Shown: piece by piece, positions 6,073 to 52,637 of the stretch
How positions within the stretch are numbered: the stretch's first letter is position 1
Layout of the letters: each line of letters starts with the position of its first letter
Assembly (NCBI GenBank): GCA_003511165.1
Contig: DOJW01000007.1
Span: 148,324-212,323, forward strand
Length of the DNA: 64,000 nt
From: Candidatus Babelota bacterium
GTDB lineage: Bacteria; Babelota; Babeliae; Babelales; UBA12411
Reading direction: 5' to 3'
The notes under the pieces: generated by a model
The model's input: only the letters and a program-made list of their open reading frames with translations
Database searches by the model: none
Told to the model about the DNA's origin: nothing
Position numbers and translations under genes: made by a program

Positions 6073-6227
6073 TTGACCTTCTTTTTTGATTTTTATTTTT
6101 GTTAAAACTTTTTATTACAAGTTAATTTTTTTAAAATAACTTAAATTTTCTAAAATTCAATATTCCTTTTTCAAAACCCTTAGCCATCTTAGTCAACTCC
6201 TTGCATCTTTACTTTCGTTCGTACCCA

Positions 6228-6276
6228 TTCGACTACGCCATAAAATGGCTCCGCTCAGGGCAAACGAAAATTTAAA
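6228..6276. repeat. 49-nt hairpin module shared, in inverted orientation, with repeat island C (51234-51282)
   Basis: The reverse complement of 6228-6276 (cgtttgccctgagcggagccattttatggcgtagtcgaatgggtacgaa) matches 51234-51282 with 3 mismatches. Confidence 0.7.
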
Positions 6277-6359
6277 ATATGATTCGATGATAATAACCAC
6301 TGTAAGATTATAAAATAAAGTTTAATGTAGATTCGAAAGAGGTTTAATATTCCAGTGAA

Positions 6360-6900
6360 AGCCACCCCGGCTTAAAAGCCGGGGCTTCTAACTCATGAAA
6401 ACTATTTTTGATTTTGAACATATTTTTTTATCACTTCTTCATCACAACTTCCAACCGTCTCGGCAAAATATCCATCCGACCAAAGACTATCTCCCCAAAG
6501 AAATTCTTCTAACTCAGGAAACTCTTCTCTTATCTTTTTACTACTTCCACCCTTAAACAATTGTATTGCTCTTGCAACACTAGTTTTTGTGTCTAATTGC
6601 ACAATTGCATGTATATGATCAATCTGCACGTTAATTTCTTGTACTTGCCAGTTATTAACTTCTGCGCATTGAATTAATAGTTCCTTAATTCTATCCGCAA
6701 GCATCCCCTTTAAAATTCTTTTTCTATATTTTGGTATCCATATTATATGGTACATAAGCCTGTGTTTTGTATGTGAACCTAACCAATACTTTTTCATATT
6801 TAGGAGTATGCCATCTTTATTGGCGACTCGCAAAATCTCCGATTTTTGCTGCCTCGCCAAGTGGACTCGCATTCATCCCCAGGTTTAAAACCCTGGGGTT
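6360..6900 (-). mobile_element. IS200/IS605-family insertion sequence (tnpA only); exact ends not defined
   Basis: A Y1 transposase gene is flanked by subterminal GC hairpins: ccccggc-ttaaaa-gccgggg (6365-6384) and ccccagg-tttaaaac-cctgggg (6877-6898). It sits in the intergenic gap between the PP2C pseudogene and the MCE gene. Confidence 0.75.
6402..6872 (-). CDS. tnpA: IS200-type Y1 (HUH) transposase TnpA
   Basis: HTKHRLMYHIIWIPKYRKRIL, IDHIHAIVQL (HUH motif) and SDGYFAETVG (catalytic Tyr region). An alternative start at 6797 (MKKYW) gives 131 aa. The 6872 start is preceded by GGGGA, which lies inside the 6877-6898 hairpin. Confidence 0.9.
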   Translation of the reverse strand: MRVHLARQQKSEILRVANKDGILLNMKKYWLGSHTKHRLMYHIIWIPKYRKRILKGMLADRIKELLIQCAEVNNWQVQEINVQIDHIHAIVQLDTKTSVARAIQLFKGGSSKKIREEFPELEEFLWGDSLWSDGYFAETVGSCDEEVIKKYVQNQK

Positions 6901-6910
6901 TTCTGCTCGA

Positions 6911-6945
6911 TTAAATAAAAAAGGAGTGCTCAAAACACACTCCTT
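6911..6945 (-). terminator. Rho-independent terminator after the MCE gene (may also act as the IS200 left-end insulator hairpin)
   Basis: 8-bp stem aaggagtg (6921-6928) / cactcctt (6938-6945). On the minus strand it is followed by ttttttattt. Confidence 0.6.
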
Positions 6946-9670: not shown

Positions 9671-10594
9671 TTAAGTAACCGGCGATTGGTTTGGTTGATT
9701 TACACTTTGCTGCGGAGCTTGTCCACCTTGCTGGCTTACATTCTGTTTTTCGCCCTGATCTTGTCGTACGCGCTTTGGCTGTTGCTGCGTAACTTTTTTA
9801 TTAAAAAAATTTATAAGCCCATCAAAAACAAACTCTTTATTTTTATTTTCACTCCAAAAAACAATATGATATTTTAAAAAATCTGGAATCTGATCTTTTG
9901 TTTTTTCGCCACCATCCCATTCAAACGACTTATAAATTTCTTTTTTAGATTTTCCAGTTTTTTGATCCTGCTTTTTAAGTTTTTTAAAAAATTGCAAAGA
10001 AATTTCTTTTATATTTTTCGCAACCAAATCGCTGTAAATAAAATCTTTTGATGATTTTCTTGTGATCGAATCTGCTTCTTTCAGCAAAACATTATCTAAT
10101 TTTTTAGTTTCGCGACGAATAAGGTCGTAACTATGCTTTTCTCGGTCCCCTGCTGTTTTATTTAACTTGAGCTCATAGCCTACTCGTACAAGATAAAATT
10201 TGTTTTCTTCTATATTTTGCAATGGGGATGTTGAAACAAAAGATGCAGTTTTAAAAAGTTTTCCTTTAGCTTTTCGCAAACTATTCAAAGTATCATCTTC
10301 CTGCGTTTGCGCTTGAAAAAATTTGTTAGGCGCTTCTTTACGATCTAAAGTAACTTTTTCCTCTTTTGTTGATGTCGAAGTAGTATCAAAAGAAAAAATT
10401 GTAACGGATGAGAAATCTCGTTCCATTTGATTTATAAGTAAAAAAGCCTGCTCATTAATTTTTATATTTTCATCGCCGATGGCAACAAAACGAAAAGAAC
10501 TTCGCATCGACATTATAATAAAGCTCATAAATGTTGCCGCAACACTCATGGCTATCAAAATTTCAAGCAAAGAAAATCCATAACTTTTTCGCAT
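9671..10594 (-). CDS. Pseudopilin (GspJ-like) with Gln-rich C-terminal tail
   Basis: Prepilin-type N-terminus MRKSYG/FSLLEILIAMSVAA (Gly at -1, Glu at +5). Q-rich tail ...QQGGQAPQQSVNQPNQSPVT. Confidence 0.6.
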   Translation of the reverse strand: MRKSYGFSLLEILIAMSVAATFMSFIIMSMRSSFRFVAIGDENIKINEQAFLLINQMERDFSSVTIFSFDTTSTSTKEEKVTLDRKEAPNKFFQAQTQEDDTLNSLRKAKGKLFKTASFVSTSPLQNIEENKFYLVRVGYELKLNKTAGDREKHSYDLIRRETKKLDNVLLKEADSITRKSSKDFIYSDLVAKNIKEISLQFFKKLKKQDQKTGKSKKEIYKSFEWDGGEKTKDQIPDFLKYHIVFWSENKNKEFVFDGLINFFNKKVTQQQPKRVRQDQGEKQNVSQQGGQAPQQSVNQPNQSPVT

Positions 10595-13347: not shown

Positions 13348-14358
13348 ATGAAAATAAAAAATATAGTTATATTGGTAGTAGCTTTGGCAGCAATAATTAA
13401 CTTTGATAAAAACATTTTTGCAAAATCAAATATCTCCAAAAAAAATTATTTTACTGCGCATCCTTCAGTCAAATACAATGTCAATTTAAATAGCGAATAT
13501 AAAACACAGCAATTTAACACCGCACTAGAAAAGTATATAAAAGAAGAATACAACAGCAGTGACTATGCAGATTACATTTCACAAAACAGCGGGCACTTTC
13601 TCGAGCTTTTAAAAATTATAGACAATTTCAAATTGGGAGACGACTCCATCCCTTATTTTTATACAATATTCAAACTTTTCAACGACAAAATGAAATCATG
13701 CGAACTTGTAGATTACGCTGTTGTTCAATCAATTTTAGAAGAGATGCCACAAATTTTAAAACCTTATTTAAAAGCAGAAAACGTTGATGTCAAAACATTA
13801 ATTGAAAAGCAACTTGATTATCTAATTCAATCCAAAATGCAAACATACCTAAAACCAGTCAAAACACCAGTCAGCAACATAAAAAACTTTTCAAATAATT
13901 TAACACGCGAACTATCAACAACTTATCAAAACGAAAAAGATAAGATCGAAAATTTGTTTAAATTGAGAAGTATCGCAGTACGCTTTTTAGAAAATATAAT
14001 CGGTAAATCAGTCTGGAGCAAAAGCCACTATGAATCAATCTGGCCCGCTTTCACCAAAATCTCATTTTTGATTGATAATCTTTATAAATATGAAATCATT
14101 GATGATGAAGACGAAATAGACAGTCTAAAATGGTCGCTCGTTCATTCATTTTGCAAATTTATAGATATTGTCAGCATTGAACTTCCACTAGATTTTTACG
14201 AAGAAATCGAAGACGATCTTGTAAATAAAACAATTCCATTTTTAGAGGAAGAAGAACAAGATGCATTCATCAAAACAAAAAAAACAACCATCGGTGAATG
14301 CCTGCTAAAAACTAAGAGCCGAACTATTGGATATAAGAAGATGGGAATCATTTCATAA
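13348..14358 (+). CDS. Hypothetical secreted protein
   Basis: Full ORF with signal peptide MKIKNIVILVVALAAIINFDKNIFA. No family recognised. Confidence 0.55.
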   Translation: MKIKNIVILVVALAAIINFDKNIFAKSNISKKNYFTAHPSVKYNVNLNSEYKTQQFNTALEKYIKEEYNSSDYADYISQNSGHFLELLKIIDNFKLGDDSIPYFYTIFKLFNDKMKSCELVDYAVVQSILEEMPQILKPYLKAENVDVKTLIEKQLDYLIQSKMQTYLKPVKTPVSNIKNFSNNLTRELSTTYQNEKDKIENLFKLRSIAVRFLENIIGKSVWSKSHYESIWPAFTKISFLIDNLYKYEIIDDEDEIDSLKWSLVHSFCKFIDIVSIELPLDFYEEIEDDLVNKTIPFLEEEEQDAFIKTKKTTIGECLLKTKSRTIGYKKMGIIS

Positions 14359-14403
14359 GGAATTTATCATCCCTTATTTATATCCCAATTTTTAAAACTT
14401 AAT

Positions 14404-14862
14404 TTATATATTTATTCTTAGTTTATCTTTTAATTTATTCTGCTTTAAGTTTGTTTTTCTTTTTTCTTTAATCAAATTAGCTCCGCTAGGGCCAAGGGTG
14501 TTGATTTGAACACCCTTGGATCCCCAAACTAAAGAAGTTTCTTTAGAATCTCTGACGCCTGAAACTCCCGCATCCAGTCTAGCCCGGACTTCGCATAAAG
14601 CTATGTCGGGCTAGACTGGACTGCGGTTCTAACAGCCAGGCTAATTTGGAATCTACAAATTTATATTATAGAAATCCAGGAAAATATAATTATTAAATAC
14701 TGATCCAGCACTACCTGTTTGAGTCGGAGTACAACGTAGTTGTATCCCGGCGAGTTTAGTGCTGTAGAGATTTTAAAGAAACCTCTTTAATGTGTGATTG
14801 CAAAGGATGCACACCCATCCTTTGCCGCACAGCGCGTAGCTGCTAAGGATAAAAAAATAGAA
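14404..14862. repeat. GC-rich composite repeat island A (non-coding, modular hairpins)
   Basis: 14471-14535 is nearly identical to the reverse complement of 43643-43707. 14701-14830 is ~95% identical to 51368-51497. The end module cctttgcc..gctgctaaggataaaaa is shared with the island B left end (inverted) and the island C right end. GC-rich in an AT-rich background. Confidence 0.8.
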
Positions 14863-15065
14863 TAAAAAAGCATAAGAAAAATACCTAAAATACTAATAGG
14901 ATTTATAAAAACATCCCTTCCATACCTCTTAAAACCAAAAAACAATTAAATTCAAGGTTTTTTAAAACAATTTTTAACGCTAACTATCAAACCTTTAAGT
15001 TTTTCAAATTTCGCTTTATCATATTTGGATATAAAAATTAAAAACCAAATCTGTAAGGGAACAAT

Positions 15066-16460
15066 ATGTTACCAAACATTTTCAGAGAATATGATATCCG
15101 CGGTGTTATAGGGAAATCATTTTTGATAGATGAAGCAGAAAACCTAGCACAATCTATTGTCACATATTTTTTGAGCAAAAATCCAAATATTAATACCGTA
15201 ACTGTAGCGATGGACGGCAGAATTCATTCACAAGCGATCAAAGAAAAAGTAATCAATTCAATTACGCAAATGGGTATAAATGTCATCGACATCGGACTCT
15301 GCCCAACTCCTACATTCTATTTTTCACTTTTCATGCACCCAGAAAGCACAAGCGGTTTAATGATCACGGCATCACACAACCCAAAAGAATATAACGGAAT
15401 GAAAATCTGTTTTGAAAAACAATCGGTGTTTGGAAAAGAGATCCAAGAAATCAAAAAAATCAGCGAATCTCAAAATTTCTTTGAAAACAAAACAGGCAAA
15501 GTTGGCACGGTCGCAAAATACGATGCAACAAATTTGTACATCAAATGGCTCACAGACAACTTCGCACATCTAAAAAATTTACCCATTTCTGCACTTATTG
15601 ACTGCGGAAATGGAACCGCAGGAGCAATATTGCCTCAATTGATATCTGCAATGGGATGGAAAAATGTAAAAACAATTTACGAAGAAATCGACGGTAATTT
15701 TCCAAACCACGAAGCTGATCCAACAACTTATGAAAACATGCACGAAATAATTTTAAAATTAAAAAATAATTCTACTTTTGAACTTGGAATAGGATTCGAT
15801 GGCGATTGTGATCGAATGTCTCCAATAACCAAAAATGGCAAAATAGTTGAAGGCGACAAATTACTTGCCTTATTTTCAAAACAAATTTTAAAAGACGTTC
15901 CAAATGCTACCATCGTTTTCGACATCAAAAGCTCTTGTGGACTTATGGAGCTACTTGAAGAATGGGGCGCAAAACAAATTTTGGCACCATCCGGCCATTC
16001 ACTAATCAAAAATACAATGATCCAAAATAATGCAATGCTCGCAGGCGAACTTAGTTGCCACTTTTTCTTCAAACATCGCTACTTCGGCTATGATGATGGA
16101 ATTTATGCAATGATGCGCACATTTGAAATTTTGCTCGAAGAAAATAAAAGCTTAGAAGAACTGCTGCAAATTTTTCCTCAAAAATTTAGCTCTCCAGAAT
16201 ATCGCCTCACTTGCAAAGAAGAAGAAAAACAAGAAATTGTTGAAAAAGTTAAATCTTATTTTTCACAAAAGGTTGATGCCAAACTTATCACAATCGATGG
16301 AATCCGTGCACAACTACCATTCGGTTGGGGGCTGGTCAGAGCTTCAAACACCCAACCAGCCATGACATTACGATTTGAGGCAAATAGCTACGAAAACCTA
16401 GAAGCAATAAAATATGAATTCAAAATAGCTTTAAATCCATATTTCCAAACTGATTTTTAA
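15066..16460 (+). CDS. Phosphomannomutase/phosphoglucomutase (alpha-D-phosphohexomutase)
   Basis: Active-site loop TASHNPKEYNGMKI and metal-binding loop GIGFDGDCDR; 464 aa. Confidence 0.85.
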   Translation: MLPNIFREYDIRGVIGKSFLIDEAENLAQSIVTYFLSKNPNINTVTVAMDGRIHSQAIKEKVINSITQMGINVIDIGLCPTPTFYFSLFMHPESTSGLMITASHNPKEYNGMKICFEKQSVFGKEIQEIKKISESQNFFENKTGKVGTVAKYDATNLYIKWLTDNFAHLKNLPISALIDCGNGTAGAILPQLISAMGWKNVKTIYEEIDGNFPNHEADPTTYENMHEIILKLKNNSTFELGIGFDGDCDRMSPITKNGKIVEGDKLLALFSKQILKDVPNATIVFDIKSSCGLMELLEEWGAKQILAPSGHSLIKNTMIQNNAMLAGELSCHFFFKHRYFGYDDGIYAMMRTFEILLEENKSLEELLQIFPQKFSSPEYRLTCKEEEKQEIVEKVKSYFSQKVDAKLITIDGIRAQLPFGWGLVRASNTQPAMTLRFEANSYENLEAIKYEFKIALNPYFQTDF

Positions 16461-33371: not shown

Positions 33372-34238
33372 ATGAATTTTTTTAAATCAATTTGGTTTTG
33401 TTTGTTTCTGTGTTTAGTTGGTAACAACATAAATTTGTCAGCAACAGTTATTACATTGGAAAATACAAAAATAGAAAACTACAAACTAGAACAAATAAAT
33501 TTAGAAAAAATAAAAGAGCTAACGGCGGAATTCGAATCTAAAGAAACAACTAAGAATTGGGTTAAACGTGCGATCGTTACAACCGCAATACTCACAACCA
33601 TAGGTATAATAACTTACGAATGTTTTTTAAAGGGAAAATCTAAAACCTCTTCCAATGAATCTTCTCCAAAAACTGCTCTTAATGGTTGCCCAGGAATTCA
33701 TATACCAACAACTCGTGATAAAGTAGAAGATTGGGTTGTTTATATTACTCTAGGATCATTAACTATTCCTCTTGGAAACTGTTTCGACAAGGGAATTACA
33801 GAATCTTACAATAAAATCAGTAGTTGGTGGGGATCCAAAGGATTTTCGCCTGCATTATTTTTGCAACAATGTCAGCAAAATATTAGCTTAATGCAAAACA
33901 ACTTTGAAGGCATAATAAACTTACAAAACGACACTGCTTATTCGAATTTTTATTTAACTCGAGTCATCGAAACACATAATGCGCTTGTAGGTTCAATAGA
34001 ATGTTTAATAGCATCTTCGTTTGCATTATCAAATAATAAAAACAATAAAAACTGGTTATTAAGTGATCAAAATGGATTAATTTTAGAAATGGAAAGCCTA
34101 AGAACATTTTTAGACAAAATACTCCATCAAAATCCTGTTTCCATCGATTTAATAGAACTAAAAAATCATCTAAACAGTTTATTATTAAAAATACAACGAT
34201 TAAATATTGATTTTAGAATCGCACCCGAAAATGAATAA
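33372..34238 (+). CDS. Hypothetical secreted/membrane protein
   Basis: Start placed at ATG 33372 (MNFFKSIWFCLFLCLVGNNINLSA). Internal TM AIVTTAILTTIGIITY. No family recognised. Confidence 0.5.
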   Translation: MNFFKSIWFCLFLCLVGNNINLSATVITLENTKIENYKLEQINLEKIKELTAEFESKETTKNWVKRAIVTTAILTTIGIITYECFLKGKSKTSSNESSPKTALNGCPGIHIPTTRDKVEDWVVYITLGSLTIPLGNCFDKGITESYNKISSWWGSKGFSPALFLQQCQQNISLMQNNFEGIINLQNDTAYSNFYLTRVIETHNALVGSIECLIASSFALSNNKNNKNWLLSDQNGLILEMESLRTFLDKILHQNPVSIDLIELKNHLNSLLLKIQRLNIDFRIAPENE

Positions 34239-34287
34239 TTTTTTATATTTGTACAATTCTAAATTTATGAATATTTACAATATTTTC

Positions 34288-34402
34288 CTGGATCCCCGCA
34301 TTCGCGAGGATGACAGTGAGAGAAATATATATTGTAATTATTCCTCATTTTCAGAAGGAATTAGCAACCGATCCCGTCATCCTCGCGAATGCGGGGATCC
34401 AG
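34288..34402. repeat. 115-bp MITE-like element with perfect 27-bp terminal inverted repeats
   Basis: ctggatccccgcattcgcgaggatgac (34288-34314) is the exact reverse complement of gtcatcctcgcgaatgcggggatccag (34376-34402). Confidence 0.8.
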
Positions 34403-34470
34403 TCTTTATAGATCCAATCAAGGATGAAGATAAGATCCTATCAAGTAGTTCACAAAAATTGCACACACCC

Positions 34471-34590
34471 AATTCAAGCAATATCAAATTTGACAAAGTC
34501 CCACGTCATCCTCGCGAATTGCATATGTCTCATTCAAGCGATATCAGAATTGATAGTGTCCTCCGTCATCCTCGCGAATGCGGGGATCCA
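34471..34590 (+). repeat. Two tandem ~60-nt units ending in the same hairpin core (first copy truncated)
   Basis: aattcaagcaatatcaaatttgacaaagtcccacgtcatcctcgcgaatt... followed by cattcaagcgatatcagaattgatagtgtcctccgtcatcctcgcgaatgcggggatcca. A third unit lies at 35008-35066. Confidence 0.75.
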
Positions 34591-34620
34591 TTTCAAAATT
34601 TATACAAAAGAAATACCACA

Positions 34621-35103
34621 ATGAAAACCTTTTATGTTTATATTACTTGTTCTAAAAAAAATGGAACCTTATATATTGGGATGACCAATGATCTTACAAG
34701 GCGCATGCAAGAACATAAAAACAAATTAATTAAAGGATTCACAAAAAAATATTCGGTAAATTTGCTTGTATACTATGAAACATTTGAATCAATAATTGAT
34801 GCAATTAAAAGAGAAAAGCAATTAAAAAAATGGAAACGTGAATGGAAGATGCACTTTATCGAAAAGATCAATCCCAATTGGAAAGATTTAAGTGAAACCG
34901 ATATTTTCCTGGATCCCCGCATTCGCGAGGATGACAATAAGGAAAATATGAATTTTACATATTCTTCAGCAACTAACACCGATAACTTTAATATTGGCTC
35001 CCTCCCTAATTCAAGCGATATCAAAATTGACCAAGTCCCACGTCATCCTCGCGAATGCGGGGATCCAGTCTTCATTGCTCCAAACAAGGAAGAAAATGAA
35101 TAA
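34621..35103 (+). CDS. Small stand-alone GIY-YIG nuclease-domain protein (conserved core ~34621-34895; the C-terminal tail reads through repeat DNA)
   Basis: MKTFYVYITCSKKNGTLYIGMTNDLTRRMQEHK...REKQLKKWKREWK contains the GIY (VYI), YIG, Arg and Glu positions of the GIY-YIG fold. There is no in-frame stop until 35103, so the true C-terminus is uncertain. Confidence 0.7.
   Translation: MKTFYVYITCSKKNGTLYIGMTNDLTRRMQEHKNKLIKGFTKKYSVNLLVYYETFESIIDAIKREKQLKKWKREWKMHFIEKINPNWKDLSETDIFLDPRIREDDNKENMNFTYSSATNTDNFNIGSLPNSSDIKIDQVPRHPRECGDPVFIAPNKEENE
34919..35068. repeat. 150-bp MITE-like element with the same perfect 27-bp terminal inverted repeats
   Basis: ctggatccccgcattcgcgaggatgac (34919-34945) and gtcatcctcgcgaatgcggggatccag (35042-35068). 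Confidence 0.8.
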
Positions 35104-43136: not shown

Positions 43137-43157
43137 AGTTGCAAAAAACAATTAATA

Positions 43158-43196
43158 AGAAAGGGGCGGAAAATTCCGCCCCTTTCTTATTTTGTT
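43158..43196 (+). terminator. Rho-independent terminator of CDS 40434-43136
   Basis: 12-bp stem agaaaggggcgg (43158-43169) / ccgcccctttct (43176-43187), followed by tattttgtt. Confidence 0.75.
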
Positions 43197-43282
43197 ACAA
43201 TCCATGTTTTGTCTAATTTTAATTAAATATTTTTTAAATTTTAAAATTTTTGATATTAATTTCTTCTTCCGTTTCTTTCTTT

Positions 43283-43762
43283 TTTTATTTTTATCTTTAG
43301 CTGCTCCCGCAGTGGGGCAAGGAGATTTTGTCGCAAAAACCTCCTTGCATCCTCCGTGCGCCAAAAGAGGACTTTTGGATTTCCTACAACGCTAAACTAT
43401 CTGGATGCAACTACGTTGCACTGCGATAGTAGCGTTGCAATGCGGATACACAAATTTTATTTACTGGGTTTAGAACTTTTGCGAAAATCTATTTTATATT
43501 TCCTTTATTTTTCTAAATTTGAATTGTTGAAAAATTTAGAAAAACGTCTTTATGAGAATATAGGATTCCAAATTAGCGCTACCTGTTTGAACTGCAGTCC
43601 AGTTTTACTGGATGCAGGAGTTTAGCGCGTAGAGAGATTACAAAGAAACCTCTTTGTTTTGGGGATCCAAGGGTGTTCAAATCAACACCCTTGGCCCTAG
43701 CGGAGCTAATTTGATTAAAAAAAAAGTAAAACAAACTTAAAGCAGAATAATTTTAAATAAAC
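43283..43762. repeat. GC-rich composite repeat island B (inverted relative to island A)
   Basis: The left end (43283-43325) is the reverse complement of the A/C right-end module. 43497-43560 is ~90% identical to 51296-51360. 43643-43707 is the reverse complement of 14471-14535. Confidence 0.8.
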
Positions 43763-43864
43763 GGAAGAAGAATAGAATTAAATTAAATTAAGAAAATTAG
43801 GTAAAAAAATAAGGGACCATTTCTGATCCCTTTGTCCTTTTATCAAATATTTTTGAAAAAAGAT

Positions 43865-44794: not shown

Positions 44795-45020
44795 AAAATA
44801 GACCCTTTTATTTTTAAATTAATTCGATTTATAAGCATTAAAATAACATTAAAGCAATCATATTTTTTGTAAACCGCCTAAAAACTAATAGTTTTTGTCT
44901 GAAATATATTGATTTTAATAACTTTCAAGCGGTTGCAAATAGTAATTCATTCATTAATATAGTTGTTATTACTATTATTTTAATAAAAGAGCTAAAAATA
45001 CAGTTTTTAATGGAGAATTT

Positions 45021-46265
45021 ATGAAAATGTTAAAAAAGTTAATTTTATTACTCAGTTTATTTACTGCAAATCTAAATGTTTTATCGGCTGTAACGTATCA
45101 AGAATTTAAACAGGACAAAGAATCGTTTTTGCAAGAATTGCAAAGAGAATATCCTTTTGTAGGAGATCTTATACCTTTTTGGCGAAATCTTTTAATAGTT
45201 TGTAAGGCAAAACTTAATCCAGAGTTGTTAAACAGGCCTTATGTAAAAGCTATTGTTAACAAAAATGAAAATCTAAACATGTTTAATGTGGATAGACTTG
45301 AAGAATATTTGCAAACAAACAGTTTAGGAGAATTTTGGATAAAATATTTTGATCTAACTAATTCTAATATAAAAGATTTCATAAGCCCTGAGATATGGGA
45401 TAATCAAAATTATTGGCGTTTGATAAATGATAATTTTGACAGGATAAAACTAGCATTAAATGACAGAAGCGTAAAAAATGGGTGTCTATTTGATTTTACT
45501 AATTCAAGCCAAGCTAAAATTATTTCTGATTTAGGTTTAAAAAAAGTTGTTAATTTTTCTGATTCAAGTTCAACAATTGCCGAATTCCTAAAAAATACAT
45601 TGCTAGAGTTTGGTGAAAATCCCGATGATTTTTACTATGTCACTGAAAAAGAGATTTTTAATAATGAATTTCGATTAGAGTTTTTTAAAGGTTTTATTAA
45701 AAGAATTGATGAATCTCCCGAAGGTTTAATTTTGACGACACCTTTTGGTTATCTTAGATTACAAGGAAATTGTCATGTATTTTTAGCAAGTGAATCAATT
45801 TTTTCAGTTCTTCCAGAAACGGAAAAGAAGGCTTTGCTACTTCATGAATTGGGCCATAAAAAAACTAATGATTATTTTTTACCTTTATTTAGCGGGTTTG
45901 CACAAGCAACTTTATCAGATGAAACATTTAAAATGTGCATATTGCCGTTGATGAATATTGCAAAGCAAATTGATGAATTTAAGGCAGACCTTTTTATGGC
46001 TTGTTGTGGGAAAAAATATCGAAGCAAATTCATTGATTTATTATTTTTTGCCCAAGAAAGTTTAGAAAAGAGCGGCGAAAAAGCTGAAGCTGTAGATCCT
46101 GCGCATCCTTCTAATGCTAAACGAATCGATGCGATAAAGATGGTGGGAAGTCAACTTGATGCACAAGGAGCCGGGGAAAATGTGCTTGCAAAGTTGAAAG
46201 AAAATTGGAAAAAACAATATGACGAATTACTACAAAAAGAGCTTATAAAAACTGATTCAAAATAA
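45021..46265 (+). CDS. Secreted M48-like zinc metalloprotease-domain protein (paralog A)
   Basis: Signal peptide; HELGH (nt 45843-45857); downstream IDEFKADLF (E-x2-AD) and DPAHPSNAKRI. This spacing is typical of the peptidase M48 fold. Confidence 0.6.
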   Translation: MKMLKKLILLLSLFTANLNVLSAVTYQEFKQDKESFLQELQREYPFVGDLIPFWRNLLIVCKAKLNPELLNRPYVKAIVNKNENLNMFNVDRLEEYLQTNSLGEFWIKYFDLTNSNIKDFISPEIWDNQNYWRLINDNFDRIKLALNDRSVKNGCLFDFTNSSQAKIISDLGLKKVVNFSDSSSTIAEFLKNTLLEFGENPDDFYYVTEKEIFNNEFRLEFFKGFIKRIDESPEGLILTTPFGYLRLQGNCHVFLASESIFSVLPETEKKALLLHELGHKKTNDYFLPLFSGFAQATLSDETFKMCILPLMNIAKQIDEFKADLFMACCGKKYRSKFIDLLFFAQESLEKSGEKAEAVDPAHPSNAKRIDAIKMVGSQLDAQGAGENVLAKLKENWKKQYDELLQKELIKTDSK

Positions 46266-46290
46266 AAATACAATTTTTAATGGAGAATCT

Positions 46291-48069
46291 ATGAAAATAT
46301 TAAAAAAGTTAATTTTATTACTTGGTTTACTTACTGCCGGATTGAATGATTTATCGGCTAATCCACTAATGGATTTTTTACGATCTTTTCAAGCACATGT
46401 TCAAAGTCCACTCAAAAAAGAACAAAATTTAGTTCAAATGCCCCGAAGAACTTTTTTTGATATGCTGCGCGATATTCCAAAAGCGATTACAGAAACTGAT
46501 GAAGAGCAAGCCAAAAAATATGAAAAAATAGCGGCAATTGTTTTAGAAAAAAAGTATGAAGAGTATAAAAAAGATAAAGAATCATTTTTAAGCGAATTGT
46601 ACAAAGATTATCCATTTTTAAAAGAAGCGTACCCTTATCTGCGTAATCTTTTAATAATTTCTAAAGCAAAGCGTGATCCAAGTTTATTACAGAGACCTTA
46701 TGTTCGATCTATCTACGATGGAAAAAAAGATTTTTACTGGTATATGGATCAAAATAAAGAACTTGCCACCACTGAATCGTTGAGGGATTTTTTTGAAAAA
46801 TATGTAGATTTATCGTATGCATCAGTGAGAGATTTTTCAGATCCTGATTTATTAGAAAGCAAGGATCAGCTATTTTGGGAGCGTATCTATTTTTCTTTTG
46901 ACAAGCTAAAAGGCAAAAATTATCAGCAAGTAGAAGAACTTGCTGAACAAAAAATTGATAATTACGTAGAACAAATTGATAAATTTTTGCAACACACTGA
47001 TTGGAAATCCGTAAATTCAAATTCGTTTTGGTTAAAATATTGGAAAAAATTTAGTTTAAGAAGCTCTACGATTACCGAATTTATACAAAAACAACTACAA
47101 GCATTGGTAGATGCTTTAAAAGAATCCGAACTAGAACGACTAAAAAAAATTGAAGCCATAAATTCGGAACGACAAAAAACATCTGATATTATTAAACAAA
47201 ATCTATTTTGGGGTTGGTTAAAACGTTGCAAAAAACTTAGTTTAAATGATTCTATAGTGGCCGAATTTATAAAAAAAGAAATATTAGAGCTTGGAGGAGA
47301 TCCAAGAAATTATTTTTTTAATGAAGAGAATGCTACTTACGGTAGTCCTGCTGCTTATGGGAAATTTAGAGGGAAGGAAGCTTTTTATTTCGCAGAAAAT
47401 TTTTTATCGTCTTTATCAAAAAAAGAAGCAGCGGCTGTATTTAGACATGAATGGGGACATAAAATTTTGCGTCGCTATGCATTAAATTATTTGTTTTTGG
47501 AAGATATTAGACCACCATTATTTTACGGCCATTTTCAGAATGATGAATCAAGAGCAGATTTATATGCAGCTTTATGTGGGAAAAAATATAACGAAGCATT
47601 AATTTCCTTGGATAGCTGTGAGCCAGAAAATTATTCGGATAAAATACATCCTTTAGCTTCTCAGCGCGTCATATTGGCAAAAAAAGTATGCAAATCCGTT
47701 GTCGAGCAAGAAATAGGAGAAGATGCTCTTGGACGACTTAAAAAAGAACACCTAGATGAGGTAAGTAGAGATATTACTCGAAAAGGAAAAGAATTATTTG
47801 ATACTATTTTTCCAGAATTACGATCGACTCGAGGATTTTCTGATCTAATTCCACAAGATTTATCTGGGAACACAGGTGCATTAGTTGCTAAAAGAGAACA
47901 ATGTGATGAAACGAAACATGATGCAAAAGTTTGTAAAAAATCGAATGGATTGAAGGATTTAACAACGCATGAATCTGCTAAAAAACAAAATGGTTTCAAA
48001 GATTTAGTAAAGTCAAAACCTGAAGATATGCCTGCGCGTAAACCGTTATTTGAACATCATAGTTCTTAA
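46291..48069 (+). CDS. Secreted M48-like zinc metalloprotease-domain protein (paralog B, longer)
   Basis: Signal peptide; HEWGH (nt 47446-47460); ESRADLY and IHPLASQRV. The N-terminal domain is homologous to paralog A (YEEYKKDKESFLSELYKDYPF versus YQEFKQDKESFLQELQREYPF). Confidence 0.6.
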   Translation: MKILKKLILLLGLLTAGLNDLSANPLMDFLRSFQAHVQSPLKKEQNLVQMPRRTFFDMLRDIPKAITETDEEQAKKYEKIAAIVLEKKYEEYKKDKESFLSELYKDYPFLKEAYPYLRNLLIISKAKRDPSLLQRPYVRSIYDGKKDFYWYMDQNKELATTESLRDFFEKYVDLSYASVRDFSDPDLLESKDQLFWERIYFSFDKLKGKNYQQVEELAEQKIDNYVEQIDKFLQHTDWKSVNSNSFWLKYWKKFSLRSSTITEFIQKQLQALVDALKESELERLKKIEAINSERQKTSDIIKQNLFWGWLKRCKKLSLNDSIVAEFIKKEILELGGDPRNYFFNEENATYGSPAAYGKFRGKEAFYFAENFLSSLSKKEAAAVFRHEWGHKILRRYALNYLFLEDIRPPLFYGHFQNDESRADLYAALCGKKYNEALISLDSCEPENYSDKIHPLASQRVILAKKVCKSVVEQEIGEDALGRLKKEHLDEVSRDITRKGKELFDTIFPELRSTRGFSDLIPQDLSGNTGALVAKREQCDETKHDAKVCKKSNGLKDLTTHESAKKQNGFKDLVKSKPEDMPARKPLFEHHSS

Positions 48070-50708: not shown

Positions 50709-50814
50709 ACTATTTTTTAGAATTTTTTGGTTTATAAAAAGGCGCTAGATAATTTAACATTTTGGTTTAAAGAATCCAAGAAGGAATTAATCATTCCTTA
50801 CATTTATCCATATT

Positions 50815-51527
50815 TTTATTATTCTACTTTAAGTTTGTTTTTTAATTTTATTTTGTCAAAGATTCTACCCGCCCAGACTTCGCATAAAGCTTCGTCGGGT
50901 AAACTATGGGCCAAGGGCGCTCAAAATACAGCCCCCTTGGATCCCCAAACTAAAGAGAAATATCTTTGGAATCTCTGACGTGCAAAATTTATTTATTCTT
51001 AGTTTATCTTTTAATTTATTTTTATCTTTGGATTGCTACACGCAAGGTGACAGAGAGGATTATACGCAAAATCCTCTCTGTACTCTCCTATGCGCAAAAA
51101 GAGACTTTTGGATTTCCTTCAACGCAACGCTAAACTGTCTGGTCACAATTTCATTGTGCTGCGACAGTAGCCTTGCAAATAAGGATCCACAATAGATACA
51201 ATAGACCTCCCCTGAAACCAGACATAAAAAATCCGTTTGCCCTGAGCGAAGCCTTTTTATGGCGTAGTCGAATGGGTACAAACGGCATAATATGTATCTT
51301 CCTTTATTTTTCTAAATTTGAATTGTTGAAAAATTTAGAAAAACGTCTTAATGAGAATGTAAGATTCTGATCCAGCACTATCTGTTTGAGTCGGAGTACA
51401 ACGTAGTTGTATCCCGGCGAGTTTAGTGCTGTAGAGATTTTAAAGAAACCTCTTTAATGCGTGATTGCAAAGGGTGCGCATTCATCCTTTGCCCCCCTGC
51501 GGGAGCAGCCAGAAATAAAAAAATAGA
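50815..51527. repeat. GC-rich composite repeat island C (largest; contains A-type left modules, B-type internal modules and the 6228-6276 module)
   Basis: 50988-51018 is identical to 14410-14438. 50908-50980 is homologous to 14488-14560. 51085-51180 is homologous to 43350-43440. 51234-51282 is the reverse complement of 6228-6276. 51368-51497 is homologous to 14701-14830. Confidence 0.8.
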
Positions 51528-51649
51528 TAAAAGAAACAGAAGAAGAATTAGAAAACAAACTTAAAACAGAATGACGTCATAAATTAAAAATAAAGAAATG
51601 AAGGAAGAGTTAATTAACAAACAAAAAAAGAATTTAGATAAAACAGGAT

Positions 51650-51677
51650 TAAACAAAATAAAAGGCGAAACGCCTTT
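51650..51677 (-). terminator. Candidate terminator directly after atpE
   Basis: 6-bp stem aaggcg (51662-51667) / cgcctt (51671-51676). On the minus strand it is followed by ttatttt. Confidence 0.45.
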
Positions 51678-51683
51678 TTCTTG

Positions 51684-52637
51684 TCACTTCCACATCACAA
51701 ACAAAGCAATTACAAGAGAATAAATAGCAGATGATTCAATAATTGCTTGCGTCATTAAAGTATTTCGCAAAATCAAATTATAATTGTCTGGATTTTCTGC
51801 AATCATTTTACATGCCTTGGATGCAACATAACCAGTCGAAATACCAACTCCAATTGCACCAAATCCCATAGCAATCGCAGCAGCCAAAGAAGAAACAACT
51901 GATGTAAAAAGCAATGAAGAAGATTTGGAATAAATAAGCAAAAATGAAACTATAAAAGAAAAGATAACCGGCGTTTCGATAATCGCCTGACTAAACAAAG
52001 TAAATGGAAAAATTTTACTGTAAGCAGATTTATTTAAACCTATCGAATGACATGCACTTTTGACAAAAATTCCCTGCCCTATCGTTGGCCCAACACAACC
52101 AAATGCGATAACAAGTGCGGCAGCGAAAAGATGCATTCCTTGATAAAGTGAAATCGGATTAACAACAAAAGTTTTAATTATCAAAAAAATTATAAATGCA
52201 AAAATAACTGGTGCTTCAATAATAGATTGTGTAATCAACATAAATGTTGTAATTTTTTGCGCAAAATTGGGTTGACGAAAAATTGATTTGCAAGCTTCTT
52301 TTACCGCCATACTTGATGAAAATCCGACCACAGCCGCAACAAGCCCCATTGCAAATCCACTTCCAAATCTTGCAAGTCCAACTCCCATCGTTGTTGTATC
52401 TTTAGAAATATCAAAAATAGATAAAATTACCGCGACAAATGCTAAAATCGCACCACTTTCTGTTATACCAAGACCTATCATCAACGTTCGAAAGCCTGCT
52501 TCATGTCCCATTTTTTGCCGCTCTAAACCATCAAGTGCACCAAATCCACCAAAACCTTGACCAAAAGCAACACCTAAAGCGCTAAAGATAATTGCAAAAA
52601 TAGGACCTAAGTATGCTAGAATTAGAGGAGTTAACAT
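51684..52637 (-). CDS. atpE: F-type ATP synthase subunit c, four tandem fused c-hairpins (317 aa, ~8 TM)
   Basis: Four ~79-aa units, each with a Gly-rich helix 1, a polar loop (ERQKM / RQPNF / GLNKS / AENPD) and helix 2 with a conserved Glu (GITESGAIL, SIIEAPVIF, AIIETPVIF, AIIESSAIY). Lies immediately downstream of atpB with a 7-nt overlap. Confidence 0.8.
   Translation of the reverse strand: MLTPLILAYLGPIFAIIFSALGVAFGQGFGGFGALDGLERQKMGHEAGFRTLMIGLGITESGAILAFVAVILSIFDISKDTTTMGVGLARFGSGFAMGLVAAVVGFSSSMAVKEACKSIFRQPNFAQKITTFMLITQSIIEAPVIFAFIIFLIIKTFVVNPISLYQGMHLFAAALVIAFGCVGPTIGQGIFVKSACHSIGLNKSAYSKIFPFTLFSQAIIETPVIFSFIVSFLLIYSKSSSLLFTSVVSSLAAAIAMGFGAIGVGISTGYVASKACKMIAENPDNYNLILRNTLMTQAIIESSAIYSLVIALFVMWK

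Follow-up and report, generated by a model that had tools for sequence, protein, structure and literature searches.

What are the recurrent hairpins in the long non-coding regions of this uncultured Dependentiae (TM6) genome, and why do their stems differ between copies and still pair? The question is raised by three regions, islands A, B, and C, in the window, i.e., the whole stretch of 64,000 nucleotides analyzed here. A preliminary description had listed several separate hairpin units with seemingly compensatory changes, and had proposed that selection acts on their structure, either as folded RNA or as single-stranded DNA hairpins recognized by transposases such as the IS200 TnpA encoded in the same window. 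We find that these units are parts of one composite element, called E below, and our best reading is that E constitutes a previously undescribed, lineage-specific family of mosaic palindromic repeats.

Results

Islands and Their Genomic Context

The window has a G+C content of approximately 32% throughout, and is identical to a part of contig LBPE01000004.1 (GCA_000989975.1) and to contigs of JGI sample 3300001242. The nearest MutS sequences are labelled Candidatus Dependentiae, Babeliales or candidate division TM6, the best non-identical match being only 65% identical. Islands A, B, and C are the sole long non-coding stretches near the hairpins in question (Table 1). They are located between transcription units, outside the terminators of the neighboring genes, and E may be oriented either way relative to the flanking genes, with some copies lying upstream of genes, e.g., mutS.

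Each island comprises one minus-strand and one plus-strand copy of E, placed head to head around a variable center, with an extra truncated copy in island C. The arms form long imperfect inverted repeats. The terminal ends of island B are TTCTTCTTCCGTTT ... AAACGGAAGAAGAA; in the other islands the outer tails are of low complexity and the edges indistinct. Assemblies produced by other pipelines stop inside islands, namely, L002 at 14796, L013 at 51019 and 43690, and L015 in island D. Over common regions the other available assemblies are 100% identical to the window, except for one 15-nt gap in one of them; no empty site is seen among these assemblies, and no clear target-site duplication flanks the islands.

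TABLE 1 Positions of islands, copies of E, their parts and accessory modules (window coordinates, unless another locus is named; R1, covariance model).
Feature	Position	Strand	Description
Island A	14359–15065	.	Between ORF 13348–14358 (+) and phosphoglucomutase-like gene 15066–16460 (+); two head-to-head E copies
E copy A_L	14463–14648	-	Outer stem GCCTGG/TCAGGC; A-rich tail to ~14409 on the plus-strand side; R1 107.5 bits
Module N	14576–14618	.	Palindromic hairpin of 38–43 nt nested in the A_L P2 loop (other copies have TTTTA there); DNA fold z = -4.9 and -6.5
E copy A_R	14701–14857	+	Copy of the preliminary description; A-rich tail to ~14900; R1 159.7 bits; fold -50.7 kcal/mol, z = -4.77
A_R, U4 module	14706–14764	+	P1 14706–14713 with 14757–14764; J1 CCTGTTTGA 14714–14722; J2 GAGTT 14752–14756
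A_R, P2	14723–14735 with 14739–14751	+	One A.C mismatch and one G.T pair
A_R, linker and P3	14765–14790	+	Linker TAGAGATT 14765–14772; P3 TTAAAGA-AACC-TCTTTAA 14773–14790 (14773–14779 with 14784–14790)
A_R, P4	14800–14809 with 14816–14825	+	GCAAAGGATG/CATCCTTTGC
A_R, P5	14830–14833 with 14839–14842	+	CAGC-GCGTA-GCTG
Island B	43137–43864	.	Between convergent genes, inside these genes' own terminator-like hairpins (43154–43191 and 43811–43832)
E copy B_L (subfamily E2)	43286–43442	-	Outer stem CAACGCTA/TAGCGTTG; linker AGGAAAT; R1 130.5 bits
Spacer module S	43495–43574	+	Hairpin of 13 bp, TTTTTCTAAATTT/AAATTTAGAAAAA; directly upstream of B_R
E copy B_R	43569–43723	+	Outer stem GCGCTA/TAGCGC; inner hairpin CTGCAGTCCAG/CTGGATGCAG with one bulged base; R1 138 bits; fold z = -5.35
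Island C	50709–51683	.	Between mutS start (50708, minus) and ATP synthase c gene terminator (51660–51678); one truncated and two full E copies
E copy C1_L (truncated)	50880–50990	-	Lacks U4; P3 with two mismatches; N-like hairpin 50871–50899 at the P5 position; R1 34.2 bits
E copy C2_L (subfamily E2)	51017–51181	-	R1 109.6 bits
Module M	51228–51290	+	Hairpin with GCGAAGC; also L014 14061–14123 (island D)
E copy C2_R	51368–51523	+	U4 differs from A_R by 1 nt; P4 with G.T intermediate; R1 160.3 bits
IS200 element (not part of the E family)	6355–6915	-	tnpA 6402–6797; end hairpins 6362–6385 and 6877–6898
Module M, isolated copy	6216–6266	-	~100 nt beyond the right-end hairpin of IS200
Island D	L014 13852–14417		Found by extending the window via flanking genes
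Island F	L021 9687–10202		Reached through a cluster sibling of a spurious spacer ORF
Islands L6, L7	L006, L007 on JGI contig Ga0209417_1000048 (329 kb)		Found by a scan of metagenome contigs

Composite Structure of the Element

All coordinates and sequences of the preliminary description agree with the window sequence. This applies to the outer stem AGCACTA/TAGTGCT (14707–14713/14757–14763 and 51374–51380/51424–51430) and its island B version AGCGCTA/TAGCGC (43575–43581/43623–43628), to the enclosed hairpins with the flanks CCTGTTTGA and GAGTT(T), and to the pair GCTA-AACTATC...GATAG-TAGC (43392–43432) and GCTA-AACTGTC...GACAG-TAGC (51129–51171). The small hairpin linked to AGAGAT has also been found again, the pattern AGAGATTNYAAAGANNNNTCTTTR having seven matches with at most three mismatches, compared to 0.28 expected; the 16-mer AGCRCTAYCTGTTTGA occurs exactly three times. 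Self-comparison and alignment place all these units within the single composite element E, the GCTA...TAGC pair being the P1/P2 portion of subfamily E2, as in B_L.

E consists of a core of approximately 140 nt, in which five local hairpins are joined by short conserved single-stranded segments, and of an A-rich tail of approximately 60 nt. The order from 5' to 3' is P1, enclosing J1, P2, and J2; the linker; P3; P4; P5; and the tail. P1 is the outer stem of 8 bp, J1 is CCTGTTTGA, J2 is GAGTT, and P2 is an imperfect hairpin of 10–13 bp. The linker ends with AGAGATT, or with AGGAAAT in subfamily E2, yielding the invariant form AGRRAWT. P3 is a small hairpin, P4 is a hairpin of 10–13 bp, and P5 is a 4-bp stem of the form NNGC-loop-GCNN.

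Three further candidate features were not retained. The long-range closing helix AAATTAGC/GCTAATTT is present only where U4 of variants v2–v4 meets H type b; P4 could be lengthened by GTGTG/CGCAC, but this extension is not conserved in other copies; and the internal loop between P1 and P2 does not match the canonical geometry of a K-turn or a loop E.

Matched Changes in Five Helices

Single units fold at z = -4.8 to -6.0 on either strand, compared to dinucleotide shuffles. If the whole of island A is folded, its two arms are partly paired with each other, with P2 and P4 staying local. In an alignment of 15 copies, fitted to the structure by hand, 94.3% of 615 pair cells are standard, compared to 72.0% in shuffles (none of 500 reaches the observed value), and 30 of the 46 pairs have changed on both sides (again 0 of 500 shuffles); these copies represent approximately five to seven lineages, the pair cells are not independent events, and the shuffle control ignores relatedness. 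If the 3' partners in this alignment are slid by one to three columns, pairing falls to 38–45%. Similar behavior is seen in an unfitted MAFFT alignment with the structure proposed by RNAalifold itself: 91.4% of cells are paired (shuffles, 81.0%), 17 pairs have changed on both sides (0 of 500 shuffles), and the analysis recovers P1, P2, and P4. In P3 and P4 some variants are too divergent for column homology, and there the result is that a perfect hairpin is always present. Moreover, copies F_L and F_R, which were found after the model had been fixed and hence are treated as an out-of-sample check, agree with it and add paired variants not seen before to every one of the five helices.

The changes form series. 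The P1 variants are CAGCACTA/TAGTGCTG, CAGCGCTA/TAGCGCTG, GCGCTA/TAGCGC, GCCTGG/TCAGGC, and CAACGCTA/TAGCGTTG, and those of P5 are CAGC/GCTG, CTGC/GCAG, TAGC/GCTA, TTGC/GCAA, and GTGC/GCAC; the outer pairs of P3 are TT/AA, AC/GT, CT/AG, or CC/GG. One position of P4 has changed stepwise, from A-T (A_R) through G.T (C2_R) to G-C (L7_R). The P2 variants are homologous, with the core GSWGT, and carry an irregularity at a fixed place: in v1 and E2 an A.C mismatch is combined with G.U, and v2–v4 have a single bulged base there. The conservation of these P2 imperfections and the A-T, G.T, G-C series in P4 fit selection on the fold of one strand, and the fold of single-stranded E appears to be under selection. 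Thus, the proposal that structure is selected gains from matched changes that are far above chance and extend to five helices, where two or three had been noted before; the associated link to the IS200 TnpA fares differently (see below).

Mosaic Composition and Accessory Modules

Subtypes of U4, subtypes of H, and the linkers S, M, and N are present in a different combination in every island. For example, U4 v1 (57 nt, identical or with one difference) is joined to H type a in A_R, C2_R, and L7_R, and to type c in L6_L, and U4 v2 is joined to H type b (B_R, F_R) or type e (L7_L). Within an island, the left and right arms are usually of different subtypes, and no pair of left and right arms recurs whole at two loci. 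Scanning with module-specific profiles yielded no free-standing U4 or H module.

In islands B, C, D, L7, and F, one arm has module S in front of it; besides the copy in Table 1, S is located at 51299–51367, L007 2894–2962 (reverse complement), L014 14131–14191, and L021 ~9975–10040. A copy related to module N, at 50871–50899, replaces P5 of C1_L, and the center of island F carries a variant of the palindrome that surrounds a GIY-YIG gene.

Copy Number and Distribution

In total, approximately 122 kb of this organism's non-redundant DNA contained 15 copies of E, seven of them in the window, and one more cut by a locus end; all are intergenic. When the window was extended, one side yielded a further island, D, and the 8 kb added on the other side contained none. 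Covariance model R1, built from the unfitted alignment and including P1, P2, and P4 only, assigned 99–162 bits to the twelve full copies then known, and 125 and 137 bits to two later copies. In 48 kb from three relatives (MutS 60–65% identical), neither nhmmer nor the covariance model identified a copy of E, and in these relatives plus control loci R1 gave nothing better than an E-value of 0.3.

Scanning of genome contigs with CTGTTTGA..GAGTTTAG..AGAGAT produced three chance matches only, in unrelated bacteria. A scan of metagenome contigs produced one chance match and two true loci, both on a single 329-kb contig, and a scan of viral contigs produced no match. Searches of plasmids and phages revealed no similar DNA, and island A has no blastn match in 5,426 Escherichia coli genomes. 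Rfam families give no match in the window at gathering scores, and only noise at E-values up to 10 on islands A and C. A protein search with the concatenated island translations (1,266 aa) had no match, its candidate list probably being swamped. The profile of the spacer ORFs recovers only the two known ORFs. P0124 is a cluster sibling of these ORFs, encoded on a different contig of this genome, and its translation departs from theirs precisely in the region of P2. Two papers on Dependentiae genomes mention only protein repeats (PMC4776705, PMC6561590).

The IS200 Element of the Window

The product of tnpA belongs to the Y1 family (Pfam Y1_Tnp, E-value 2.5e-38), and scores 134.6 bits with the NCBIfam model NF033573 (transpos_IS200; cut-off 55), compared to 31 bits with the RAYT model (cut-off 80). 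The exact tnpA sequence is present at one locus only. The ends of the element are hairpins CCCCRGG..TTTTAA..CCYGGGG, which on the tnpA strand read CCCCGGC-TTTTAA-GCCGGGG and CCCCAGGG-TTTTAA-ACCTGGGG, and are unlike P1–P5; moreover, a miniature without tnpA, bearing the same kind of hairpins, is located at L006 8200–8400.

The preliminary description had suggested that the E hairpins are single-stranded DNA substrates of this very TnpA. A Y1 gene is indeed present in the window, a copy of module M, a constituent of islands C and D, lies close to the right end of IS200, and P2, with its conserved irregularity, is imperfect in the manner of known TnpA substrates. At the same time, having its own end hairpins and its own miniature derivative, the transposase has its own substrates, to which no helix of E is similar, and the nearby module M is the sole tie to E; the protein fits the IS200 model, not the RAYT one, and the arms of E are inverted, as opposed to the direct orientation of IS200/IS605 ends. 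Hence, we consider this suggestion very improbable.

No single-copy RAYT gene flanked by E was found in the DNA read, the sole Y1 gene there being of the IS200 type. A layout resembling RAYT/REPIN is seen in a relative (locus L018, MutS 60% identical), where inverted pairs of 96-nt modules, each with three hairpins, stand on both sides of a Y1 gene. This shows that systems of a transposase and composite hairpins exist in the phylum; for E itself it is no evidence.

Strand Polarity

On the E-sense strand, 20 G.T cells are observed compared to 10 A.C cells (13 copies); in helices P3–P5, which are otherwise perfect, four G.T events stand against a single A.C event, which lies in the truncated copy. 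The minimum free energy of RNA is lower on the E-sense strand in all 12 copies tested, the mean difference being 4 kcal/mol. The fold z-scores relative to shuffles have no consistent strand preference, and so composition may account for a part of this energy difference. The P5 loops on the E-sense strand are GGGA, GTGA, GGA, GCGTA, GTGTA, GTGGA, and GGGTA, that is, of the GNRA/GNA type. With a closing C-G pair, loops of this type are stable in RNA as well as in DNA mini-hairpins of the GCGAAGC type, and GCGAAGC itself is present in module M. Taken together, these indicators mildly favor E-sense polarity, and are compatible with either RNA or single-stranded DNA.

Discussion

Origin and Maintenance of the Islands

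The islands combine repetition, strictly intergenic location, mosaic make-up, nested hairpins, five covarying helices, and absence from the relatives examined. We consider it somewhat probable, at a little above even chances, that they are accretions of lineage-specific mosaic palindromic repeats, whose single-stranded fold has been selected for the propagation of a selfish repeat. E, which we infer to be mobile, would multiply and homogenize at the DNA level by duplication or transposition, module exchange, and nested insertion. Two units would come to lie head to head, and the variable center between them could accept extra palindromic modules, such as S, M, N, and the GIY-YIG-associated palindrome. 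Only the versions in which one strand still folds would persist, and this would produce the matched stem changes between subfamilies along with the fixed junctions and the fixed imperfection of P2. The relevant form is likely the single strand in E-sense polarity, and propagation could be performed by a structure-recognizing enzyme, e.g., an HUH/Y1 transposase encoded elsewhere in the genome. Four observations speak against this explanation: the DNA read contains no transposase, or agent of another kind, that is linked to E; neither a target-site duplication nor an empty site was found; recurrence of whole pairs, as predicted for a clean REPIN-like mobile doublet, is not seen; and the GNRA-type loops, the TGTARRAT-like box, and the lower RNA energy of one strand suit a transcribed RNA equally well.

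The main rival, rather unlikely in our estimation, is that E is a multi-copy structured ncRNA gene, transcribed outward from the island center and acting in trans or on neighboring transcripts, so that covariation reflects selection on the RNA fold. It accords with the covariation in five helices, where stems vary and single-stranded junctions are conserved, and also with the prevalence of G.U over A.C cells, the lower RNA energy of the sense strand in every tested copy, the P5 loops (as RNA, GGGA, GUGA, GCGUA, GUGUA, GUGGA, and GGGUA), one P2 loop CUUG closed by G-C, and a conserved TGTA[AG][AG]AT-like box 6–9 nt upstream of P1 in all full copies. These features have to be set against the lack of Rfam family matches even at E-values up to 10, a consensus scan that revealed neither a promoter nor a terminator fitting E, the absence of a U-run after a hairpin at either unit end, and the z-scores, which do not consistently prefer a strand. 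Moreover, copies that exchange modules, contain nested palindromes, or are truncated, together with the absence of E from relatives, are traits of repeats rather than of conserved RNA genes, and E aims at flanking genes in both relative orientations. A stronger version, in which E would be a class of self-propagating structured RNA genes of approximately 140 nt in one Dependentiae lineage, with its own -10-like box immediately upstream of P1, five covarying helices, GNRA-type P5 loops, and a GA/GA-flanked internal loop between P1 and P2, that is, a mobile ncRNA rather than merely palindromic DNA, appears improbable.

If there were no selection on structure at all, the matched changes could have been produced by intrastrand template switching or gene conversion in palindromes, and then shared by recent ancestry. 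One-step "compensatory" changes are known to arise by template switching in hairpins, many copies of E are near-identical, so that the cells are not independent, and relatedness is ignored by the shuffles. Still, template switching perfects palindromes, yet the A.C and G.U of P2, or its bulge, are kept in all subfamilies; G.T intermediates are seen in the P4 series; the unpaired junctions are conserved, and the stems vary; and pairing is maintained in five separate helices, even though most stem positions differ between subfamilies. We assign this scenario only a small probability. Even less credible is a role of the hairpins as intrinsic terminators or 3'-end stabilizers of the flanking mRNAs. 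REP/BIME elements have such roles in E. coli, and the islands lie downstream of several genes. On the other hand, terminator-like hairpins with T-runs, belonging to the flanking genes themselves, are located outside the islands, a T-run does not follow any hairpin of E, whichever direction is read, no terminator-like site is present inside any copy of E, and some copies are located upstream of genes, mutS among them.

Significance

Dependentiae (TM6) are host-dependent bacteria with small genomes. With approximately one island per 15 kb, the family would, if the density holds, fill a few percent of the genome, which is notable for a reduced one, and its islands visibly break metagenome assemblies. 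For a bacterial repeat E is unusually elaborate, having five helices, and junctions and an imperfection conserved across subfamilies. It therefore provides a good natural test case for recognition of structure over sequence, be it by a single-strand transposase, a structure-specific nuclease, or RNA machinery, and model R1 is a ready tool for finding the family in complete genomes.

Comparison With Known Repeat Families

E resembles REP/BIME elements in being restricted to intergenic regions, in its inverted imperfect palindromes, in the mosaic of recurring linker modules, in the number of copies, and in lineage specificity. It differs in that an arm of E spans 140 nt and strings together five hairpins, their junctions being conserved, as opposed to one 35-nt hairpin, and in that no sequence similarity (blastn, 5,426 E. 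coli genomes), conserved GTAG, or cognate RAYT was found. A REP is defined as a single imperfect palindrome of 20–40 nt with a GTAG-like 5' tetranucleotide, whereas E has the linker AGRRAWT instead. The head-to-head doublets of E (islands A, B, C2, D, L6, L7, and F), the hairpin pairing kept by matched changes, and the Y1 transposase with inverted three-hairpin modules in the related locus L018 are reminiscent of REPIN-RAYT systems; however, the arms of E are mostly of different subtypes, no intact doublet recurs, and the nearby Y1 gene is of the IS200 type and is not flanked by E.

Similar to pneumococcal BOX (boxA-boxB-boxC), ERIC, and Correia elements, E is modular, with modules that may be swapped or omitted, has a predicted stable structure, is intergenic, and has no known mobilizing agent. 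The modules and sequences are unrelated, the pairs of E are split by long variable centers, and covariation is much more extensive in E. The ends of IS200/IS605 elements and PATEs also have imperfect subterminal hairpins, which act as single-stranded DNA, and the resident IS200 has such a derivative (L006 8200–8400), but the hairpins of E are dissimilar, its arms are inverted, not direct, and its helices are five. With the attC sites of integrons, which are recognized as folded single strands, E shares, by analogy only, a structure that is kept, a sequence that is free, and conserved extrahelical imperfections, and it differs from them in having no integrase, cassettes, or R/L box consensus. 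Thus, the closest known kind is that of the mosaic palindromic repeats, REP/BIME, REPIN, and BOX.

Palindromic modules and their copies

Copies of a 25-nt palindrome (GGATCCCCGCATTCGCGAGGATGAC) are found all round the GIY-YIG nuclease gene of the window, two of them being translated within the C-terminal part of the ORF. A variant of this palindrome with matched stem changes (ATTCTCGC/GCGAGAAT) occupies the center of island F, which lies outside the window (L021, approximately 9935–9962), and the 9-mer GGGGATCCA is common to the palindrome and the linker preceding hairpin P4 in type b of the E repeat unit.

Module M, a small palindromic module of the islands, contains GCGAAGC (or GCGGAGC); GCGAAGC is the sequence of a very stable DNA mini-hairpin. 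One M copy (6216–6266) is located about 100 nt from the right end of the window's IS200, and module N (14576–14618) is a shorter relative of M. The tnpA-less miniature of this IS200, observed in the metagenomic locus L006, has CCCCGACTT-AAAAAGTCGG as one hairpin; the left-end hairpin region is copied as well (87.5% identity in translated comparison, tblastx), and the two hairpin parts are separated by an M-like sequence.

The translation of P0124 departs from that of the spurious ORF over island B exactly at the position (..CLNPPSLKLWRAGCCPS) of P2, the imperfect hairpin inside the outer stem. Judged from translation, this divergence is compatible with yet another palindromic variant of P2.

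Features and their positions
Feature	Sequence	Positions	Strand	Remarks
ATP synthase c-subunit gene	window	51684–52637	minus	317 aa, four ATP-synt_C matches
Adjacent gene pair	window	45021–46265, 46291–48069
GIY-YIG region	window	34207–35103		ORF from 34621; small nuclease gene, Pfam PF01541, E = 8e-17
25-nt palindrome copies	window	34290–34314, 34376–34400, 34565–34589, 34911–34935, 35042–35066, 43–65
Module M copies	window; L014 (holds island D)	6216–6266, 51228–51290; 14061–14123
tnpA-less miniature of the window's IS200	L006	8200–8400
Protein P0124	different contig, same genome			HBS47780.1 (NCBI); spurious ORF resembling one over island B
Y1 transposase gene and flanking modules	L018, contig Ga0643560_000049	2540–3680		related Dependentiae

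Islands in independent assemblies

In independent assemblies (JGI, Logan), contigs break off within islands, at 14796, 43690 and 51019 of the window and at 13897 of L014, which shows that the island repeats limit assembly of this genome. When the window is compared with loci L001 and L009, 15 nt (ATTAAATACTGATCC, 14692–14706) prove to be absent from assembly GCA_000989975.1, the last of them being the one that opens the outer stem; every other assembly matches the window's version. Either faulty assembly or a genuine indel at the module boundary could account for this difference.

Other genes of the window

The usual ATP synthase c subunit is about 80 aa long; the 317-aa subunit of the window is a fused multi-hairpin form. 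The adjacent genes look like tandem paralogues, their start regions (44993–45089 vs. 46263–46359) being 87% identical over the upstream sequence and the signal-peptide-like N-terminus of both.

A Y1 transposase locus in a relative

The Y1 transposase of L018 (149 aa) scores 68 bits with the IS200 model and 21 bits with the RAYT model. On each side, its gene is flanked by a 96-nt module of three hairpins, whose two direct copies are 100% identical, and by an inverted partner of that module; the hairpins of this locus also differ by matched changes. This layout, with the Y1 gene between three-hairpin modules, resembles that of RAYT/REPIN systems.
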